18,210 nucleotides of DNA from Promethearchaeota archaeon Loki_b32 (GTDB lineage Archaea; Asgardarchaeota; Lokiarchaeia; Sigyniarchaeales; SOKP01): positions 1 through 18,210 of the forward strand of contig NJBH01000053.1 of assembly GCA_005223125.1 (NCBI GenBank), in the 5' to 3' direction. A model generated the notes under the pieces. That model had not been told where the DNA came from and ran no database searches. It was given only the letters and a program-made list of their open reading frames with translations. Of the stretch, positions 5,169 through 18,210 are shown piece by piece; position 1 is the stretch's first letter; the number at the start of each line of letters is the position of its first letter. The position numbers and the translations under genes are program-made.

Positions 5169-5501
5169 CTATTTTCCTACTTTTTCAATAGACTCGATAT
5201 TCCATAAATATTTTTTAAGATCGAGTTTAAATTCATCTGAAAACGTAATTCCTTCTTGTTCCAGTAGATTTTTTTGATATTCTCGATCTTCGATAGATTT
5301 TAAAGCTATTATTCCCTTTGAATTGATGACACGATGCCAGGGAAGATTATATTTTTTAGTAGATGAGTGTAAAGTCCATGAAACCTGTCTAGCAGCTCTT
5401 GGATTTCCTGCTAACTTGGCAATAAAACCATAAGTAAGAACTTTACCTTTTGGAATATTTTTAATTATATGAACTATTTTTTCTGTAAAATCACTAGGGA
5501 T
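5169..5501 (-). CDS. Alkyltransferase-like (ATL, Atl1/YbaZ-type) MGMT-family DNA-binding protein; probable ATC start
   Basis: Manual translation: (I/M)PSDFTEKIVHIIKNIPKGKVLTYGFIAKLAGNPRAARQVSWTLHSSTKKYNLPWHRVINSKG...YQKNLLEQEGI...YLW. PWHRV (Trp in place of catalytic Cys). No in-frame ATG/GTG/TTG; in-frame TGA at 5510-5508. Confidence 0.88.
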   Translation of the reverse strand: MPSDFTEKIVHIIKNIPKGKVLTYGFIAKLAGNPRAARQVSWTLHSSTKKYNLPWHRVINSKGIIALKSIEDREYQKNLLEQEGITFSDEFKLDLKKYLWNIESIEKVGK

Positions 5502-5531
5502 TGATAATCACTATTTTTGTTTATTTTTTAT

Positions 5532-6878
5532 CTAAATATTTCGATGATATTGCTTTTCAATTTCTTTTGCTTTAGTAAATAGTTTTTCTAATTCCATTTT
5601 ATTTAACTCTTTAGTTTTGAAAATTATATGATTACAGTCATATTTTGTGAAATTATGTTCAAAGATGGTAATTCCAAATTCTTCTCTTTCATCCCACAAA
5701 CGAGATCCCGGGTAAGGAGTTGCTACAAAATAGTTTAAATCATCCTCCTTATCTAAAGGTAGAGATTCTATGAATTCAATCGTTTGAAAAAAGCTGTCTT
5801 CTGTTTCACCTGGTAATCCTAAAACAAAGTATGCTTGTATAGCAATATCATATTTCTTTAAATTTATAATTCCCTTTCTAACTTGTTCTGGGTTCTGATA
5901 TTTAAAATTTGTTTTGAGTACTTTTTCGTTCGCAGACTCAATACCAGTCGCTATTAATTGGCAACCTGCTTCTTTCAATAAACGAGCATCTTCAGAATTA
6001 ATTGTATCTACACGGAGTTCACAACCCCAAGGAATTCTGATTCCATTTTCAATGAACATTCGACAAAAATTTCTAAAAAAACTTTTAGAAATATTAATGT
6101 TATCATAAAAGTTGATATGATTATACGTTTGTAAAGATTGGATATCTCTGATTTCTTTTAGAATTGATTCGATGCTTCTAATCCTAGTTTTCTTAAATAA
6201 GTTTTGTCTTGAACAAAATGAGCATTGATTAGGACAACCTCTATTGACTATAACATGTGCAACCGTGTAATAATAATTGTCTTGAGATAATTTATATCGG
6301 GCAGGTAAAGGTAATTTCTCCATATCAATCTCATCTATTTGATGATTAACATGGATACTTCCCGTAGAATTAATATACGCAATTCCTTTCATAGATTGTA
6401 ATTGCATCTTATAATAATCTAATCTTCTCTCATTTAGAATTTGAGTAGTTAATATTTTAGCCAAACTTAGAAAGGAGGTCTCTGCTTCTCCAATGCAAAT
6501 GAAATCAATTAAACTTTCAGTTTTTATGTCATTTTTTAGGATGTCTTTATATATAAAAGATACATGAGGTCCACCCAAAATAACGTAGTTATCTTTATCA
6601 TAATTTTTAATAATTTTTGCAACTCTTAACGCGAGATGGAATGTATTTGTAAGGGATGTAATGCCAAAAATTTTGTAATCGGCTATTCTTTCTTTAATTA
6701 TATTTTCTAATTCTACTTCATTTAAATCAACAAATTGCTCAAGATCTAAAATATCGACTGGAATATCATTTAAATCTAAAATTGCGGTTAAGTATAATAA
6801 TCCTAAGTTTGGTTCTCTAAAAAACTGTGAACGAACTTCTGAGGGCTTAGAAGTTCTAGGATTAATTAGCAGAATCAT
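5532..6878 (-). CDS. Cobalamin-binding-domain radical SAM protein
   Basis: N-terminal B12-binding fold (LLINP, PNLGLLYL, ILGGPH, IGEAE); NRGCPNQCSFC; GIESANEKVL; FVLGLPGET; TPYPGSRLW. Confidence 0.92.
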   Translation of the reverse strand: MILLINPRTSKPSEVRSQFFREPNLGLLYLTAILDLNDIPVDILDLEQFVDLNEVELENIIKERIADYKIFGITSLTNTFHLALRVAKIIKNYDKDNYVILGGPHVSFIYKDILKNDIKTESLIDFICIGEAETSFLSLAKILTTQILNERRLDYYKMQLQSMKGIAYINSTGSIHVNHQIDEIDMEKLPLPARYKLSQDNYYYTVAHVIVNRGCPNQCSFCSRQNLFKKTRIRSIESILKEIRDIQSLQTYNHINFYDNINISKSFFRNFCRMFIENGIRIPWGCELRVDTINSEDARLLKEAGCQLIATGIESANEKVLKTNFKYQNPEQVRKGIINLKKYDIAIQAYFVLGLPGETEDSFFQTIEFIESLPLDKEDDLNYFVATPYPGSRLWDEREEFGITIFEHNFTKYDCNHIIFKTKELNKMELEKLFTKAKEIEKQYHRNI

Positions 6879-7680
6879 TGTTATTATTAGTTTCGCTTTT
6901 TTCCGGTAATTTTTTAGGAATTTGAAATGCTTTAATTAAAGAGTCAATAGCCCCTGGTTTACTATATTTTTCCTCATAAATTAGCGGGATTTCAATTTTT
7001 AATGAAGAAGATTTATCAGATTCATTAATATATAACTCAAGTCCTTGGATATTTCGTTCTTTTATGATTAATCGTGTTGAATAATTATGGTCTTGAAAGA
7101 ATGTAAAACCTGTATTTAATCGTCCTAATTTTACAGGTTTAACAGTAATTTTTTCTTCCTTAACAAAAGATTCTGTAATTTCCTCATCTGTGAATATAGT
7201 CCCGCCAATTATCATAAATCTTCGAATAAGGCTATCTGGTTGAGGAAACTCATTTATATATTCTAGAGCTTTGTTTACTTTTGGATTTGAGACTGAAATG
7301 TGGGCAACATATTTATCAGGAGTAGGTTCTGGAAAATCTTTTTTTTCGATTGGTTTAGCTCGACCTCCGCCAATTGGTTTTTGTAATAATTCCCGAAATT
7401 CCTGATCTTCTTTTGAATGCATATTCAATGGGTACACTCTATAAAATAATTTTAATTGTTGCCGTAGCTTACCAGCTAAAATCCCTCCGTATATTTGTAC
7501 TTTAAAAGAACTCTTTGGACCATTAAACGTCCAAATTCTTTTAGTATCATGATCTACAAGCAAATATGCTCTTTCAATACTAGTTTCATTCAAGATATCA
7601 CTAACTACCTGTCCTTGAGCCACTTCTCTTGTCTCCATGTAAGGGAATTCTGATAATTCCACTACTTCAAATATTTGCAT
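6862..7680 (-). CDS. Divergent gelsolin-like domain protein with a beta-rich C-terminal domain
   Basis: AYLLVDHDTKRIWTFNGPKSS resembles the gelsolin core (xYLLD...IWxWxGxxSS). Overlaps the next gene by 17 nt. Confidence 0.55.
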   Translation of the reverse strand: MQIFEVVELSEFPYMETREVAQGQVVSDILNETSIERAYLLVDHDTKRIWTFNGPKSSFKVQIYGGILAGKLRQQLKLFYRVYPLNMHSKEDQEFRELLQKPIGGGRAKPIEKKDFPEPTPDKYVAHISVSNPKVNKALEYINEFPQPDSLIRRFMIIGGTIFTDEEITESFVKEEKITVKPVKLGRLNTGFTFFQDHNYSTRLIIKERNIQGLELYINESDKSSSLKIEIPLIYEEKYSKPGAIDSLIKAFQIPKKLPEKSETNNNNDSAN

Positions 7681-7831
7681 ATTGGAATATCTAATAATTT
7701 CTTATATAATTGTAATAGGTAATTCATTAAAATAAATTTCATTATCTTTATTTATTTAGAAACTAATTCAAAATATTACTTTTCCATAAAATTTTTATGA
7801 AAAAATACATTTTAGAAGTTATTGATGTATC

Positions 7832-8230
7832 GTGTCCTCTGAAAAAATTGTATACAAATTAAACATTAGTGGTGGGACTGAAGGTCCCGGAAAAGGATTA
7901 TCTAAACCAATTGAGATTGATGAGAAGAAGTTTCGATTTGAAGGGATGAAAATCGGAGAGATCATCAAGGGGGGGCTTATAGGATTCGCTAATTATGAAT
8001 TTGAAATCACAGGAGGGAGTGATTCTAGCGGTTTTCCTATGAGAAAGGATGTTCATAGACCAGTTAAAAAGAGAATATTAGTATCAAAAAGAGGTATTGG
8101 ATACAAACCTCGACGAAAAGGAGAAAAACGGAGAAGAACAGTAAGAGGAAATGAAATAACACACAACATGAATTTAATAAATTTGAAGGTTGTGAAATAC
8201 GGAGAAGCTGAACTATTTAAGAAGGAATAA
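7832..8230 (+). CDS. rps6e: 30S ribosomal protein S6e
   Basis: YKLNIS, GMKIGE, YEFEITGGSDSSGFPMRKDV, GEKRRRTVRGN; GTG start. Confidence 0.96.
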   Translation: MSSEKIVYKLNISGGTEGPGKGLSKPIEIDEKKFRFEGMKIGEIIKGGLIGFANYEFEITGGSDSSGFPMRKDVHRPVKKRILVSKRGIGYKPRRKGEKRRRTVRGNEITHNMNLINLKVVKYGEAELFKKE

Positions 8231-8258
8231 GATTTAAAAAATACTCTGAGTAAAAATA

Positions 8259-8441
8259 ATGGTAAAGGTTAAAAAGTGTAGTTTTTGTGGTTACGACATT
8301 CCTATTGGCCGAGGTCTCATGTTTGTGAAGAGAGATGGTACAGTTCTTAACTTTTGCTCTAATAAATGTCGAAGATCATTGCTTGATTTTAAAAGAAAAG
8401 CAAGAAAAATAAGATGGACTGCCCATTACGGGAAACAATGA
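8259..8441 (+). CDS. rpl24e: 50S ribosomal protein L24e
   Basis: CSFCGYDIPIGRGLMFVKRDGTVLNFCSNKC...ARKIRWT. Confidence 0.96.
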   Translation: MVKVKKCSFCGYDIPIGRGLMFVKRDGTVLNFCSNKCRRSLLDFKRKARKIRWTAHYGKQ

Positions 8442-8482
8442 TCGAATTTATTCTTATTTACTCTTTCTAATAATTGAAAAAA

Positions 8483-8683
8483 TTATTGTAATCGTGGAAA
8501 TTTAAGGAGTTCATCAATTAAATCTACATGACTTACAATCATTCTTTTGCAACAGAAACGCTCAATTCCAAGATCTTTAAACGCTTTTTCAGAAGATTCA
8601 CCTTTTTCTAACATTTCTAGATAATGTTTGTAAACATGAGCGATTAATGCCCCGCAACTAAAGCAACGGATTGGTATAATAAT
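8483..8683 (-). CDS. rpoN: RNA polymerase subunit N (Rpo10); probable ATT start
   Basis: IIPIRCFSCG...LGIERFCCKRMIVSHVDL. Family homology starts at ATT 8683, 6 nt after GAGGAGA. The ORF-track TTG at 8767 adds 28 non-homologous residues. Confidence 0.93.
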   Translation of the reverse strand: MIIPIRCFSCGALIAHVYKHYLEMLEKGESSEKAFKDLGIERFCCKRMIVSHVDLIDELLKFPRLQ

Positions 8684-8812
8684 GGTATATCTCCTCGTAT
8701 ATTCAATTCTGGTAATTTTCTTAAAATTAAATAAAGAATAATCAAATCTGAAATAATAAATGAACAATTTAAAAAAAACTTTACTATTGATTATTCTTAA
8801 AAAAATTGAAAA

Positions 8813-9010
8813 TTAAATTATAATTAAAATTTCATTTTCTTGGAGGTAGTGTGGAATTTCTGATATAAAGTTATTCCTTAAATATAATTTCTTTAAAGAT
8901 CTTAAATTTATAATAAAGGATGGTAGTTCTGTGAAATAATTTCTATTTATTGATAAAATCTCAAGTGAATTTAATTGATTTAATGTTTTTGGAAACGTTC
9001 TAAATACTAT
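8813..9010 (-). pseudogene. 3' stub of a leucine-rich-repeat protein
   Basis: Two LRR units (LNSLEILSINRNYFTELP, LRSLKKLYLRNNFISEIP); no homologous N-terminus upstream. Left boundary of homology is approximate. Confidence 0.65.
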
Positions 9011-9089
9011 GAAGAAATACACTCAAGTTAGAATTGATCCGTAATTGATATGAAGGGATATAGGAGGTTAAAATAAATTAGGTGGTAAT

Positions 9090-9401
9090 ATGGTAAATAG
9101 GATTGTTATATCAAAATATTTGTTTTGTCCTGTATGTTTTAGAAATGAGAAAAAATTCTTCGCATAAAAATGTTATATTGACGAGAATCATATCCATCTA
9201 TGTGAATGTAGTTATTGCAGAGAATATTGGGAAATTAGGGCTTTAAAGGAGAACCTTGAACGTCTTGAGGAAGAAATTGAAATTTTTATAATTCAATCAG
9301 ACATAGGTATTTGGAGCTTTCGAAAAGAATCGTTAGAATTTTCGGGTACTCATATCTTGTATACTCCTTTTTGGAATGTCATCTCTTATAAGCGGTACTA
9401 A
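9090..9401 (+). pseudogene. Small Zn-ribbon protein interrupted by an in-frame TAA
   Basis: AGGTGG then ATG 9090: MVNRIVISKYLFCPVCFRNEKKFFA*KCYIDENHIHLCECSYCREYWEIRALKENLERLEEEI... The TAA at 9165-9167 lies between the two CxxC pairs. Confidence 0.5.
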
Positions 9402-9684
9402 TAACGTTTTTGAAGGATTAATGAATCCTGAATTTCAAATATTTGGATTCCTTATGGGAATTGTATATTATTTAGAACTCGTTAATTGGTTTTATGCTGT
9501 GAAGCATGTAGATGTGTCTGTGGCTAGCATGATTACCACCCCTACTCCTGTAATCACTATGGCTTTTGTTTTATTCATATTAAAAGAATCTATTGAACTA
9601 TATCAAATAATCGCCATGATCATCGTGTTTTTGAGCTTATATGGCTTATTATGGTCAGGAAGAGAAAAACATCATAAAAAGTAA
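9337..9684 (+). pseudogene. 3' stub of an EamA/DMT family transporter
   Basis: Frame opens after TAG 9334-9336: NFRVLISCILLFGMSS...WFYAVKHVDVSVASMITTPTPVITMAFVLFILKESI. Only most of one EamA repeat is present. Confidence 0.7.
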
Positions 9685-9710
9685 GGTTACCAAATCAAAA
9701 ATATTCTTTA

Positions 9711-10703
9711 TCAATTTATATTAATAATTAGAAAAGGGTTTAATAAAAAAGAAATAAAAATAATTAGTAATCCATAGAAAACTAATAGAAAAAGAATTTC
9801 TTTTCTGTTCTCTGGTAAATCTTTTTTAAATACCAACCTCATTGGCATAGTAAATATTGATTTAAATATTTTAGGAATTGGAATTAAAAATGATACTTTT
9901 TTTTGATACTCAGAATACTTTTCTGGAAATTTATTATTCATTAAGATTTCCTCATATAACGCAACCCCCGTAATTATCATTGCCGAGAGATACCAAGTAA
10001 ATGTATATTCAAAAATTATCCCACCACGTGGCAAACTTTTAGGTATTAATGTTAAGAGATATATACCATAACTCCAGAGAAGATATCCTAAATATTGAGG
10101 ATGGCGTGAATATTTATAAATAGAAAAATCAAAAATATCTTTTTTTTTAAGAACTCCTTGAAGCCAAGTAATTACTCCAAAGGAAAATATCACAAGTCCA
10201 ATTAAAATAATTCCATAGCTAAAATAAAGTATAAATAAATATTTATTCATTGAAAACGATGCGAAATATTCAATGATAATATAAGGCAATTTAATAATAG
10301 ATCCAAAAGATAATAGATTATATTCACATGAATCTAAAGGTAATAGAATAACCTGAAATGCTTGAATGCCTAAAAGCCAAAACATCCCCCCAAAAAAATG
10401 TGCAAAGGTAGGTATAAATAAAATAAAAGACCCAATAGAAGATATTGTTAACTTTTTTATTATAAAACCTAATATAATAATTATTAAAATAATACAAAGA
10501 CATATTAAACCAATGTATCGAAAATAAGATAATTCAGCATCAGAAATAATGAAGGAAACCACTGGAAATATTGGTTTTAATAATATATGTAATCGAAGAA
10601 GAATAATGAACTCAATAGTTAAATAATACAAACTAATGGAAAATAAAATTCCTAATGATATAACTATTAGATTTTGTAATATTTTAGATATTCGCAAGAG
10701 CAA
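9711..10703 (-). CDS. ICMT/PEMT/DUF1295-superfamily membrane methyltransferase-like protein
   Basis: IYKYSRHPQYLG and YEEILMNNKFPEKYSEYQKKVSFLIP motifs; many TM helices; start (TTG) uncertain. Confidence 0.8.
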   Translation of the reverse strand: MLLRISKILQNLIVISLGILFSISLYYLTIEFIILLRLHILLKPIFPVVSFIISDAELSYFRYIGLICLCIILIIIILGFIIKKLTISSIGSFILFIPTFAHFFGGMFWLLGIQAFQVILLPLDSCEYNLLSFGSIIKLPYIIIEYFASFSMNKYLFILYFSYGIILIGLVIFSFGVITWLQGVLKKKDIFDFSIYKYSRHPQYLGYLLWSYGIYLLTLIPKSLPRGGIIFEYTFTWYLSAMIITGVALYEEILMNNKFPEKYSEYQKKVSFLIPIPKIFKSIFTMPMRLVFKKDLPENRKEILFLLVFYGLLIIFISFLLNPFLIININ

Positions 10704-10733
10704 TAATCTAGTTATTCATTCAAAATTAAATAA

Positions 10734-11042
10734 TTTTCTATTGTTTCTATAAATCAGCCAAATGTTGAGAAAATAAAGCAACAATTAGAACCTCTTACTC
10801 TTCAAATCGTAAGATATTTAGTCATTGAATTTTATGTTCCTGCAAACTGTATTTTACGAGAATTTTCTGGTGAAGGCTTTCATATTTGGATAAAGTTAGA
10901 ACCTTTTACCATCCTTAAAAGAGCTTTTGATTTGAAGATTCATTTTAAAAAAAGTTTTAGGTTTTTTATCTTAAAAAAAGAATTTATACTTAAGAAGAAC
11001 AAAAGGAATTTTTTTATACCTATAGGTAGAGCCCTTGTATGA
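10734..11042 (+). pseudogene. Fragment of an archaeo-eukaryotic primase (AEP/prim-pol)-like protein
   Basis: ATG-less open frame: ...QPNVEKIKQQLEPLTLQIVRYLVIEFYVPANCILREFSGEGFHIWIKLEP..., matching AEP motif II (SGxGxHxW). Motif I (DxD) is absent. Confidence 0.5.
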
Positions 11043-11085
11043 AGTTTAATTCTTTAATATTCTCAGCTTTAATTCAGAGCTAAAT

Positions 11086-11101
11086 CAAAAATTTTATTTA
11101 A
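11086..11101 (+). promoter_or_regulatory. Putative BRE/TATA of the rpl7ae-rps28e operon
   Basis: CAAAAA followed by TTTTATTTAA, about 25 nt upstream of the structured leader. Weak evidence in such AT-rich DNA. Confidence 0.35.
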
Positions 11102-11126
11102 TATCCTTTACTACTGTTCTCATACT

Positions 11127-11180
11127 ATCTCGATGATTTATGAAAATATATCTTAAATTAAATATATTTGAAGGAGATGA
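11127..11180 (+). promoter_or_regulatory. K-turn-containing 5' leader of rpl7ae overlapping the Shine-Dalgarno
   Basis: AAATATAT (11144-11151) pairs with ATATATTT (11162-11169). Tandem G11142-A11171 and A11143-G11170, 3-nt bulge TAT. SD GGAGATGA at 11173-11180 forms the 3' arm. Confidence 0.7.
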
Positions 11181-11186
11181 TTAAAT

Positions 11187-11558
11187 ATTTCTTATGTTAA
11201 ATTTAAAATTCCGGATAAATTGAAAACCCAGCTTAAGAATGCTTTAACTACCATTGCTGAAACTAGGGATTCAAAGATTCGAAAAGGTATGAATGAAGTC
11301 ACTAAATCTATAGAAAGAGTTCTGGCAAAGATAGTCGTTATGGCTGAAGATGTCAGTCCTCCTGAGATTCTTTTTCACATTCCACTTTTATGCGAGGAAA
11401 AAGGAATTCCCTATGGCTATCTTTCCACTAAGAAAGAACTTGGAAATGTTGTTAGAATTAATGTATCCTCAAGTGCAATAGCTATCGAAAACGTTGGTAC
11501 TGGAAATGAAAGTGTATTAGATGATGTTGTAAAAAAATTAGAGGAAATCAAAAAGTAA
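11187..11558 (+). CDS. rpl7ae: 50S ribosomal protein L7Ae; probable ATT start
   Basis: RKGMNEVTKSIER, AEDVSPPEI, LCEEKGIPY. The family N-terminus SYVKFKIP lies upstream of the track's TTG (11220), directly after ATT 11187. In-frame TGA at 11178-11180. Confidence 0.95.
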   Translation: MSYVKFKIPDKLKTQLKNALTTIAETRDSKIRKGMNEVTKSIERVLAKIVVMAEDVSPPEILFHIPLLCEEKGIPYGYLSTKKELGNVVRINVSSSAIAIENVGTGNESVLDDVVKKLEEIKK

Positions 11559-11576
11559 TTATTTTGGTGAGATTAT

Positions 11577-11822
11577 TTGGTTAAATTAGATAAATCTAAA
11601 GGGCGTTCTATTCATGACTTCTCAATTCCGGCACAAGTGATTCAAATTATAGGACGAACTGGGCTTACAGGAGAAATCACTCAGATTAAAGTTCGCATTC
11701 TTGAAGGTCCAGATAGAAATCGAATTCTCACTCGTAATGTAAAAGGACCTATTCGCATAAACGATATTGTAATTCTACGGGAAGTAGAGCGCGAAGCACG
11801 TAAAATTCGAAAACGTAGATAG
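11577..11822 (+). CDS. rps28e: 30S ribosomal protein S28e
   Basis: [53 protein letters not shown]; GGTGA + 6 nt + TTG. Confidence 0.96.
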
Positions 11823-17086: not shown

Positions 17087-18210
17087 TTAGGATACTCTTT
17101 TACGCTTTTTCTTAATTATTAGAGATGTAAATAAGACAAAAAAAATCATCAGTAAGTACACAGGATATCCTGGAATAATTACATCTCCATCTCCATCTCC
17201 ATCTCCCTGAGGTGGAATTTCAACTACAATTTTAATACAATTTGAAAGTGTATCTCCATTATCATTGTGCGCAACCACGATAAAGTAGTATGTTCCATCC
17301 GAATAGTTGCTTAACATTAACGATAATTCGGTGATTTCATCTGCTAAAAGGATTATACTCCAATTAATCTCCGTAATATAGCTAGAATGACGATAGACAG
17401 AGTAATTATCTGTTCTAACGGAACTAGACCACGTGAGAATAAAAACTCCGTCAGAATCTGGAGTTTCTGCATCGGAAGAAAGCGTGAATGGTCCTGGGAT
17501 TGCAAGTCCCCCATCTATTATAGTCCAAGCAAAATTTGTAATGATAGTTTGTTTTGCATCCACGGCACCAAGGCTGTATATTGAATTACCTCCATCAAAA
17601 ATTACGTTATTTTGTAAAGATAGTTGCGACCAACCTAATAATAAATTATCGTAATTAGACGTTGATAATGTAACACCATGAAACATTTCATGCATGTATG
17701 TCACGCTCGAGACGTCCCAGCTACCGATGGGATGATTGAATGAAGAAGCCTCCTTGAACATATAACTCATATCTGTCACGCTCGAGACGTCCCAGTTGCC
17801 GATGGGCTGGTTGAACGAAGAAGCACTACTGAACATATCATGCATGTCTGCTACGCTCGAGACATCCCAGTTGCCGATGGACTGGTTGAATGAAAAAGCA
17901 CTACTGAACATATTACTCATGTCTGTCACGCTCGAGACATTCCAGCTATCGATAGGCTGGTTGAATGAAGATGCACCCTCGAACATATTACTCATGTCTG
18001 TCACGCTCGAGACATCCCAGTTGTCGATGGACTGGTTGAATGAAAAAGCACTACTGAACATACCACGCATGGCTGTTACGCTCGAGACCTCCCAGTTATC
18101 GATGGGCTGGTTGAATGAAGAAGCACTGAAGAACATACAATACATGAATGTCACACTCGAGACATTCCAGCTACCGATGGGCTGGATGAACGAAGAAGCA
18201 TGTCTAAACA
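17087..18210 (-). CDS. DUF285/BspA-type repeat surface protein with an Ig/Fn3-like domain and Loki-CTERM-like anchor; starts beyond the right edge
   Basis: 25-aa repeats [20 protein letters not shown], cap [12 protein letters not shown], beta domain [20 protein letters not shown] linker, IPGY + TM + KKKRKR. The frame is open to the window end. Confidence 0.92.
17686..18210 (-). repeat. Seven 75-bp tandem coding repeats
   Basis: CTCGAG recurs at 17706, 17781, 17856, 17931, 18006, 18081 and 18156. Confidence 0.95.

Follow-up and report, generated by a model that had tools for sequence, protein, structure and literature searches.

Near-cognate start codons in described systems

AUU start codons are known from single bacterial genes, an example being pcnB of E. 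coli, and ATT, ATC and ATA are permitted as starts by translation table 11 of NCBI and used in animal mitochondria, where initiation is free of Shine-Dalgarno (SD) sequences and relies on a modified tRNA-Met. For Enterococcus, an ATT start has been reported for ebpA (PMC4447247). Reviews on archaea list only AUG, GUG and UUG as starts and credit the initiation factor aIF1 with the rejection of AUU (PMC7531240, PMC4705826), and in a survey of 36 prokaryote groups a single one of 61,358 ancestral AUG starts had switched to AUU (PMC5622118). We analyzed a stretch of 18,210 nucleotides (the window) from Promethearchaeota archaeon Loki_b32 (assembly GCA_005223125.1, contig NJBH01000053.1; contig C25 of the source genome, here called G000, which comprises 4.13 Mb with 30% GC). 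According to an initial annotation of the window, the genes rpl7ae, rpoN and ATL start with ATT, ATT and ATC, each behind an SD. Sequence comparisons make it very likely that such ATH codons (H = A/C/T; AUH in the mRNA) are used for translation behind a strong SD in this Lokiarchaeia genus. The pattern of the three genes is real, conserved and probably functional.

The codon set is the same as that of table 11 and of mitochondria, but table 11 is a database call made gene by gene and not a described trait of a lineage. With bacterial infC, the gene of the fidelity factor IF3, the genus shares an SD-led AUU start and a near-cognate start on the fidelity factor's own gene (PMC4705826). It differs from infC in its archaeal aIF1/aIF2 machinery, in the number of genes, which is about 65-90 instead of a handful, and in the additional use of ATA and ATC. 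Moreover, autoregulation of infC has been demonstrated, whereas in the genus it is a possibility suggested by the start codon of the aIF1 gene. A further parallel is yeast eIF1, which likewise belongs to the SUI1 family and whose own gene has a weak start, in this case an AUG in poor context (PMC4705826). However, the codons of the genus are positioned by the SD and not by scanning, and only the third base is affected, whereas Sui- mutants accept many near-cognate codons. In archaea, ribosome profiling of Haloferax volcanii gave a near-cognate signal at ~30% of the putative alternative sites, but these are putative secondary sites that were set aside as possible false positives (PMC7261190), while in the genus core genes have such codons as their conserved primary starts. 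The literature searched, which excludes most subscription journals, contained no report on AUH initiation in Asgard archaea. The new aspects, which appear remarkable, are the apparent scale of near-cognate initiation and the ATT-started aIF1 gene.

Start sites in the window

The relevant features are, with the three genes and their SDs first:

11187..11558, plus strand: rpl7ae, 123 codons, ATT at 11187
11173..11180, plus strand: SD of rpl7ae, GGAGATGA; the TGA inside is an in-frame stop; duplex with the anti-SD -11.9 kcal/mol
8483..8683, minus strand: rpoN/Rpo10, 66 codons, PF01194; most likely start ATT 8683, alternative TTG 8767
8690..8696, minus strand: SD of rpoN, GAGGAGA; duplex with the anti-SD -8.0 kcal/mol
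5169..5501, minus strand: ATL/Ogt DNA-binding-domain gene, 110 codons, ATC at 5501; PF01035 match from residue 4
5508..5512, minus strand: SD of ATL, AGTGA (+T); the TGA inside is an in-frame stop; duplex with the anti-SD -6.6 kcal/mol
7832..8230, plus strand: rps6e, GTG start, ordinary for archaea
11577..11822, plus strand: rps28e, TTG at 11577, 6 nt past GGTGA (11566-11570), spacer gattat; canonical control with the same geometry

At all three sites the sequence agrees with the proposed 6-nt distance between SD and start codon, the spacers being ttaaat (rpl7ae), tatacc (rpoN) and ttatca (ATL). The 16S rRNA of G000 ends in GGATCACCTCCT, and the SDs are complementary to this 3' end. Gene identities are supported by Pfam matches. 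As had been noticed, the SDs of rpl7ae and ATL contain an in-frame TGA, and the open frames begin at 11181 and 5507, respectively. A frame scan also bore out that ATL possesses no in-frame ATG, GTG or TTG; its sole CTG (5264) lies 79 codons inside the gene. In rpl7ae, the first canonical codon is TTG 11220, 11 codons in. The canonical codons of rpoN are ATG 8614 and TTG 8767, the latter 28 codons upstream of the ATT, which aligns with residue 1 (Met1) of solved Rpo10/Rpb10 chains. Due to this upstream in-frame TTG, rpoN is the weakest of the three cases in G000. The GTG and TTG starts of rps6e, rps28e and bud32, which the initial annotation had listed as also being non-ATG, are ordinary archaeal starts and do not belong to the phenomenon.

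It could be argued that ATT and ATC are sequencing or assembly errors of ATG, as a few other bases of the window disagree with run X2 (see below). However, contigs of run X2 are identical to the window over 5181-5511 and 10725-11215, runs X5 and X7 from other studies cover the ATL and rpl7ae sites too, and among the differences listed for the contigs (not raw reads) of these three runs, none touches the three start codons. NCBI and JGI contigs have ATT at rpl7ae as well. The codons are thus kept in independent contigs, and they recur in 24 separately assembled genomes, so that an error, already refuted by the ortholog data, has a negligible probability.

Away from the start codons, full-depth differences between the window and run X2 occur at positions 8057, 8696, 8718, 6616 and 9497, and 1-nt insertions follow 8696 and 8718 in this run. 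The exchange at 8057 (A>G) was found in all four runs and would give rps6e a Gly instead of an Arg. These differences are possibly assembly errors or strain differences. The strain of run X7 lacks a 2.2-kb stretch between rpoN and rpl7ae (window 8681-10929), and its rpoN begins with ATG. Two open reading frames (ORFs) of this stretch were identified by eye, one transporter-like and fragmentary (9337-9684), the other a membrane-protein frame of 334 codons on the minus strand (9711-10715).

Start codons of orthologous genes

Inspection of the column occupied by the initiator Met revealed ATH codons in the genus for all three genes. In rpl7ae, ATT (22) or ATA (2) is present in 24/24 genomes with the SD kept at 6-nt spacing, while 6/6 genomes examined outside the genus show ATG-Ser-Tyr at the same column. 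The 18 ATL orthologs of the genus have ATC (9), ATT (7), GTT (1) or ATG (1), which amounts to ATH in 16/18. The rpoN column is more diverse, with ATG 11, ATT 4, ATA 3, ATC 2, GTC 1 and TTG 1 among 22 orthologs (ATH 9/22), and here an SD run of 4-6 precedes every copy with ATH or GTC but is absent from 9/11 ATG copies. An upstream in-frame ATG, GTG or TTG is missing in 20/24 (rpl7ae), 12/17 (ATL) and 7/10 (rpoN) of the non-canonical orthologs. In the canonical controls, GTG of rps6e is kept across the genus except for TTG in one genome, other genera having ATG, and the rps28e column contains TTG, GTG or ATG and one ATA.

These data bear on the assumption that the genes use ordinary nearby starts (TTG 11220 for rpl7ae, TTG 8767 for rpoN), that ATL is a pseudogene and that SD and ATH meet by chance in an AT- and Ile-rich genome. 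ATH codons are indeed frequent at 30% GC, and rpoN has the TTG upstream; in the X2 variant, a 1-nt insertion even puts a TTG 8 codons upstream of the rpoN start. On the other hand, the N-terminal residues that ordinary starts would skip are conserved and align with Met-started orthologs, the ATL gene is intact in 17/18 genus genomes examined, and seven relatives with a non-canonical rpoN possess no canonical codon upstream. As chance is also rejected by the frame and spacing controls given below, we regard this explanation as quite unlikely.

A separate observation concerns the interior of rpoN. The rpoN copies of five genomes (G016, G001, G008, G024, G018; L048-L052) carry a 28-nt insertion at the same place after RMIV (equivalent window position ~8530), which is absent from G000. 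The insertion contains an in-frame TAG and causes a frameshift; its flanks pair together and the insert folds as a hairpin, making it a candidate for a bulge-helix-bulge intron in a protein-coding gene.

Genome-wide position of ATH codons

The 3,656 genes of G000 were scanned for strong SDs, defined as at least 5 contiguous pairs located before any canonical codon. ATH codons 5-7 nt after a strong SD were in frame in 91 and out of frame in 37 cases, and for the 6-nt spacing alone the ratio was 53 to 7. Since the measured in-frame background share is 0.416, a null expectation of 1/3 is too low; against 0.416, the 91 vs 37 cases correspond to p ~1e-11 and an excess of ~65 genes. With SD runs of at least 6, ATH was in frame 33 times and out of frame once, beside 95 canonical starts, while runs of 4 gave no ATH excess in G000 once the 0.416 background was applied. 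The ATH peak lies 6-7 nt past the SD, in the same place as the canonical peak. The 6-nt bin is robust, but coding-frame bias perhaps raises the count in the 7-nt bin, and the in-frame GTG of GGTGA lowers that in the 5-nt bin; given these biases, a sharper spacing for ATH than for canonical starts is not claimed. In 58 genes, the TGA of the SD serves as the in-frame stop without a canonical codon behind it; 32 of them have ATH as third codon, compared to 4-8 at other positions, and the same positional profile is flat where the SD is absent. Samples of three other genus genomes yielded 33 ATH in frame and 4 out of frame. By contrast, 800 kb of a genome from another family (G032) showed no excess, with 7 ATH in frame, 7 out of frame and 65 canonical starts (Fisher p 0.002 against G000, low power). 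The codon set, its spacing, conservation, SD dependence and restriction to the third base as well as its distribution over the genus are thus direct observations. Together, ortholog columns and genome-wide statistics uphold the core of the initial annotation, namely a lineage-wide use of SD-positioned starts other than ATG, GTG and TTG.

For CTG, ACG, AAG, AGG and GTH, no in-frame excess after strong SDs was detected in G000, although isolated GTC (rpoN) and GTT (ATL) starts occur among the orthologs. The relaxed codon fidelity that had been postulated therefore holds for SD-positioned ATH starts but does not include CTG; the tolerance concerns the third base alone (ATT>ATA>ATC). We estimate that about 65-90 genes are ATH-started, i.e. 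~2% of all genes and 20-26% of the strong-SD starts. Hence, ATH initiation would be a minority route. Only ~12% of the first in-frame ATGs have a strong SD, and the finding that most genes have none is in line with the literature (PMC7531240). Upstream of ATGs lacking an SD, a weak TATA-like peak at a distance of ~30 nt is a hint of leaderless mRNAs. A codon-model screen of the Met column marked 49/708 genes as 'forced', but as some of these are artefacts (overlaps, frameshifts or introns), the figure was not used as an estimate. The ribosomal S10-spc cluster has mostly ATG starts, with uL15 at ATT.

In uL15 (G000:C11, ~81.3 kb), the probable ATT start lies 5 nt past GGTGA, and gene callers would mistake the in-frame GTG within this SD for the start.

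The position of the SD could be explained differently if ribosomes initiated at the ATG or GTG within it (GATGA, GGTGA) and then shifted frame, or if the mRNA were edited from ATH to AUG. It is true that an ATG or GTG lies out of frame within every such SD, 10 nt before the ATT. In three genomes, however, the ATG of the SD is followed by ATT-TAA, a stop; the 6- and 7-nt spacings would demand shifts in opposite directions, a conserved slippery site is missing, and an ATH enrichment exactly at the Met column is explained by neither frameshifting nor editing. To our knowledge, no editing turns U, C and A alike into G. Both processes are highly improbable and were rejected, as was pseudogenization.

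Proposed mechanism and initiation factors

From these observations we infer that initiation actually takes place at AUH, that Met-tRNAi decodes these codons, and what the cause may be. Pairing of the 16S rRNA 3' end (GGAUCACCUCCU) with the SD would position the mRNA on the 30S subunit so that the codon ~6 nt downstream lies in the P site. There, a normal Met-tRNAi (anticodon CAU) might be accepted despite the third-base mismatch, and AUU, AUA and AUC would start with Met. The weakness of the codon may be offset by a strong, correctly spaced SD, and it has been reported that stronger SDs accompany weaker start codons (PMC5622118). A permissive set point of aIF1-dependent proofreading seems to be the likeliest cause. 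A general fidelity loss of the Sui- type would be expected to bring use of CTG, ACG and other near-cognate codons, which was not seen.

The genes of aIF1, aIF1A, aIF2-beta and aIF2-gamma are all present in G000. The aIF1/SUI1 gene (G000:C48:127286-127600, minus; genus loci L092-L115) has an ATT ahead of the zinc knuckle in 20/20 genus loci whose start was readable; TTG, GTG or ATG are found in other genera. The first canonical codon of the gene lies 60 codons in. Archaeal 30S complexes take an AUU mRNA without aIF1 but not in its presence (PMC4705826). An aIF1 that rejects AUU and is made from its own ATT-started gene would form a negative-feedback loop like that of infC. IF3 is autoregulated through its AUU (PMC4705826), and IF3 and eIF1 both autoregulate through weak starts (PMC4705826, PMC6237735). 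Since aIF1 is reported to exclude AUU and these two factors are controlled in that way, such a loop held at a permissive point would be the most economical cause; we give the feedback step itself about an even chance. An alteration of aIF1 or aIF2, as suggested initially, did not become apparent, as no genus-specific lesion was seen in either factor, and examination by eye of the aIF1 loops, of the uS9 tail (QKSFR) and of the 3' region of the 16S rRNA revealed no obvious lesion; the aIF1 gene itself, however, is ATT-started.

The aIF2-gamma gene (G000:C49, ~91.7-93.3 kb, minus) is a 527-codon frame in which an N-terminal helix-hairpin-helix-like domain and a Lys/Pro linker were recognized by eye. 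This extension was rejected as the cause because other families of the order have long frames as well.

The main competing explanation is an initiator tRNA that is altered or modified, in which case AUH initiation would be real but due to a modified C34 or to a second initiator tRNA with another anticodon, as in animal mitochondria. An anticodon change would account for a relaxation confined to the third (wobble) base and for the missing CTG and ACG signal. However, 4 genus genomes contain a canonical initiator GGGCTCATAACCC arm with CAU, although modifications cannot be seen in DNA. The single GAU hit belongs to an ordinary elongator tRNA-Ile, which lacks the three G-C pairs, and with a cognate reader so strong a dependence on the SD would be unnecessary. 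This possibility is rather unlikely, albeit to be taken seriously.

Several points weigh against the use of AUH starts as proposed here. Support for the codons comes from assembled contigs and not from raw reads, and the contigs of RNA run X19 miss the codons. The ATT of aIF1 is 9 nt away from the best SD and thus off the 6-7 nt peak, and for rpoN, G000 and two relatives possess a TTG in frame further upstream. Observations from genomes of a single genus are not independent, and the outgroup was represented by one 800-kb sample containing few SD genes, which is compatible with low-level ATH use elsewhere. Finally, a search of G000 did not turn up the initiator tRNA gene, a result of limited weight as Asgard tRNA genes are often intron-split (bioRxiv 10.64898/2026.10.13.758758).

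Bearing this in mind, we tentatively propose, at somewhat less than even odds, that the genus evolved a heritable, third-base-specific start set (AUN behind an SD), stabilized by an AUU-started aIF1 that acts as a stringency rheostat for ~2% of the proteome. If true, this rheostat would be the archaeal counterpart of infC and eIF1 autoregulation in a lineage related to eukaryotes. [quoted passage not shown]

Annotation and minor observations

It had been expected that standard gene callers truncate or miss these genes. This applies to Prodigal-type and JGI calls, which shorten rpl7ae, but not to an NCBI annotation that already uses the ATT, a 123-aa L7Ae (P0002) of the near-identical genome GCA_004376705.1; other callers give L7Ae forms of 112 or 89 aa. 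Among 92 candidates, the N-terminal truncation has a median of 23 codons. Asgard proteins in databases may consequently be truncated at the N-terminus or missed, which would affect domain inventories and proteomics.

Three further observations were made. The ribosomal protein uS19 (G000:C11, ~72.3-72.9 kb; L121-L132) is extended in the genus by a long acidic stretch at its N-terminus, which most of the other genera examined lack. On G000:C68 (~20.7-23.3 kb), a tRNA-Ile/tRNA-Ala pair adjoins a bacterial-looking 23S-like stretch, and this is possibly a contaminating contig. At 17087-18208 of the window (minus), there is a surface-protein-like ORF with ~25-residue repeats of the FNQPIGxWDVS type, which is cut by the contig end.

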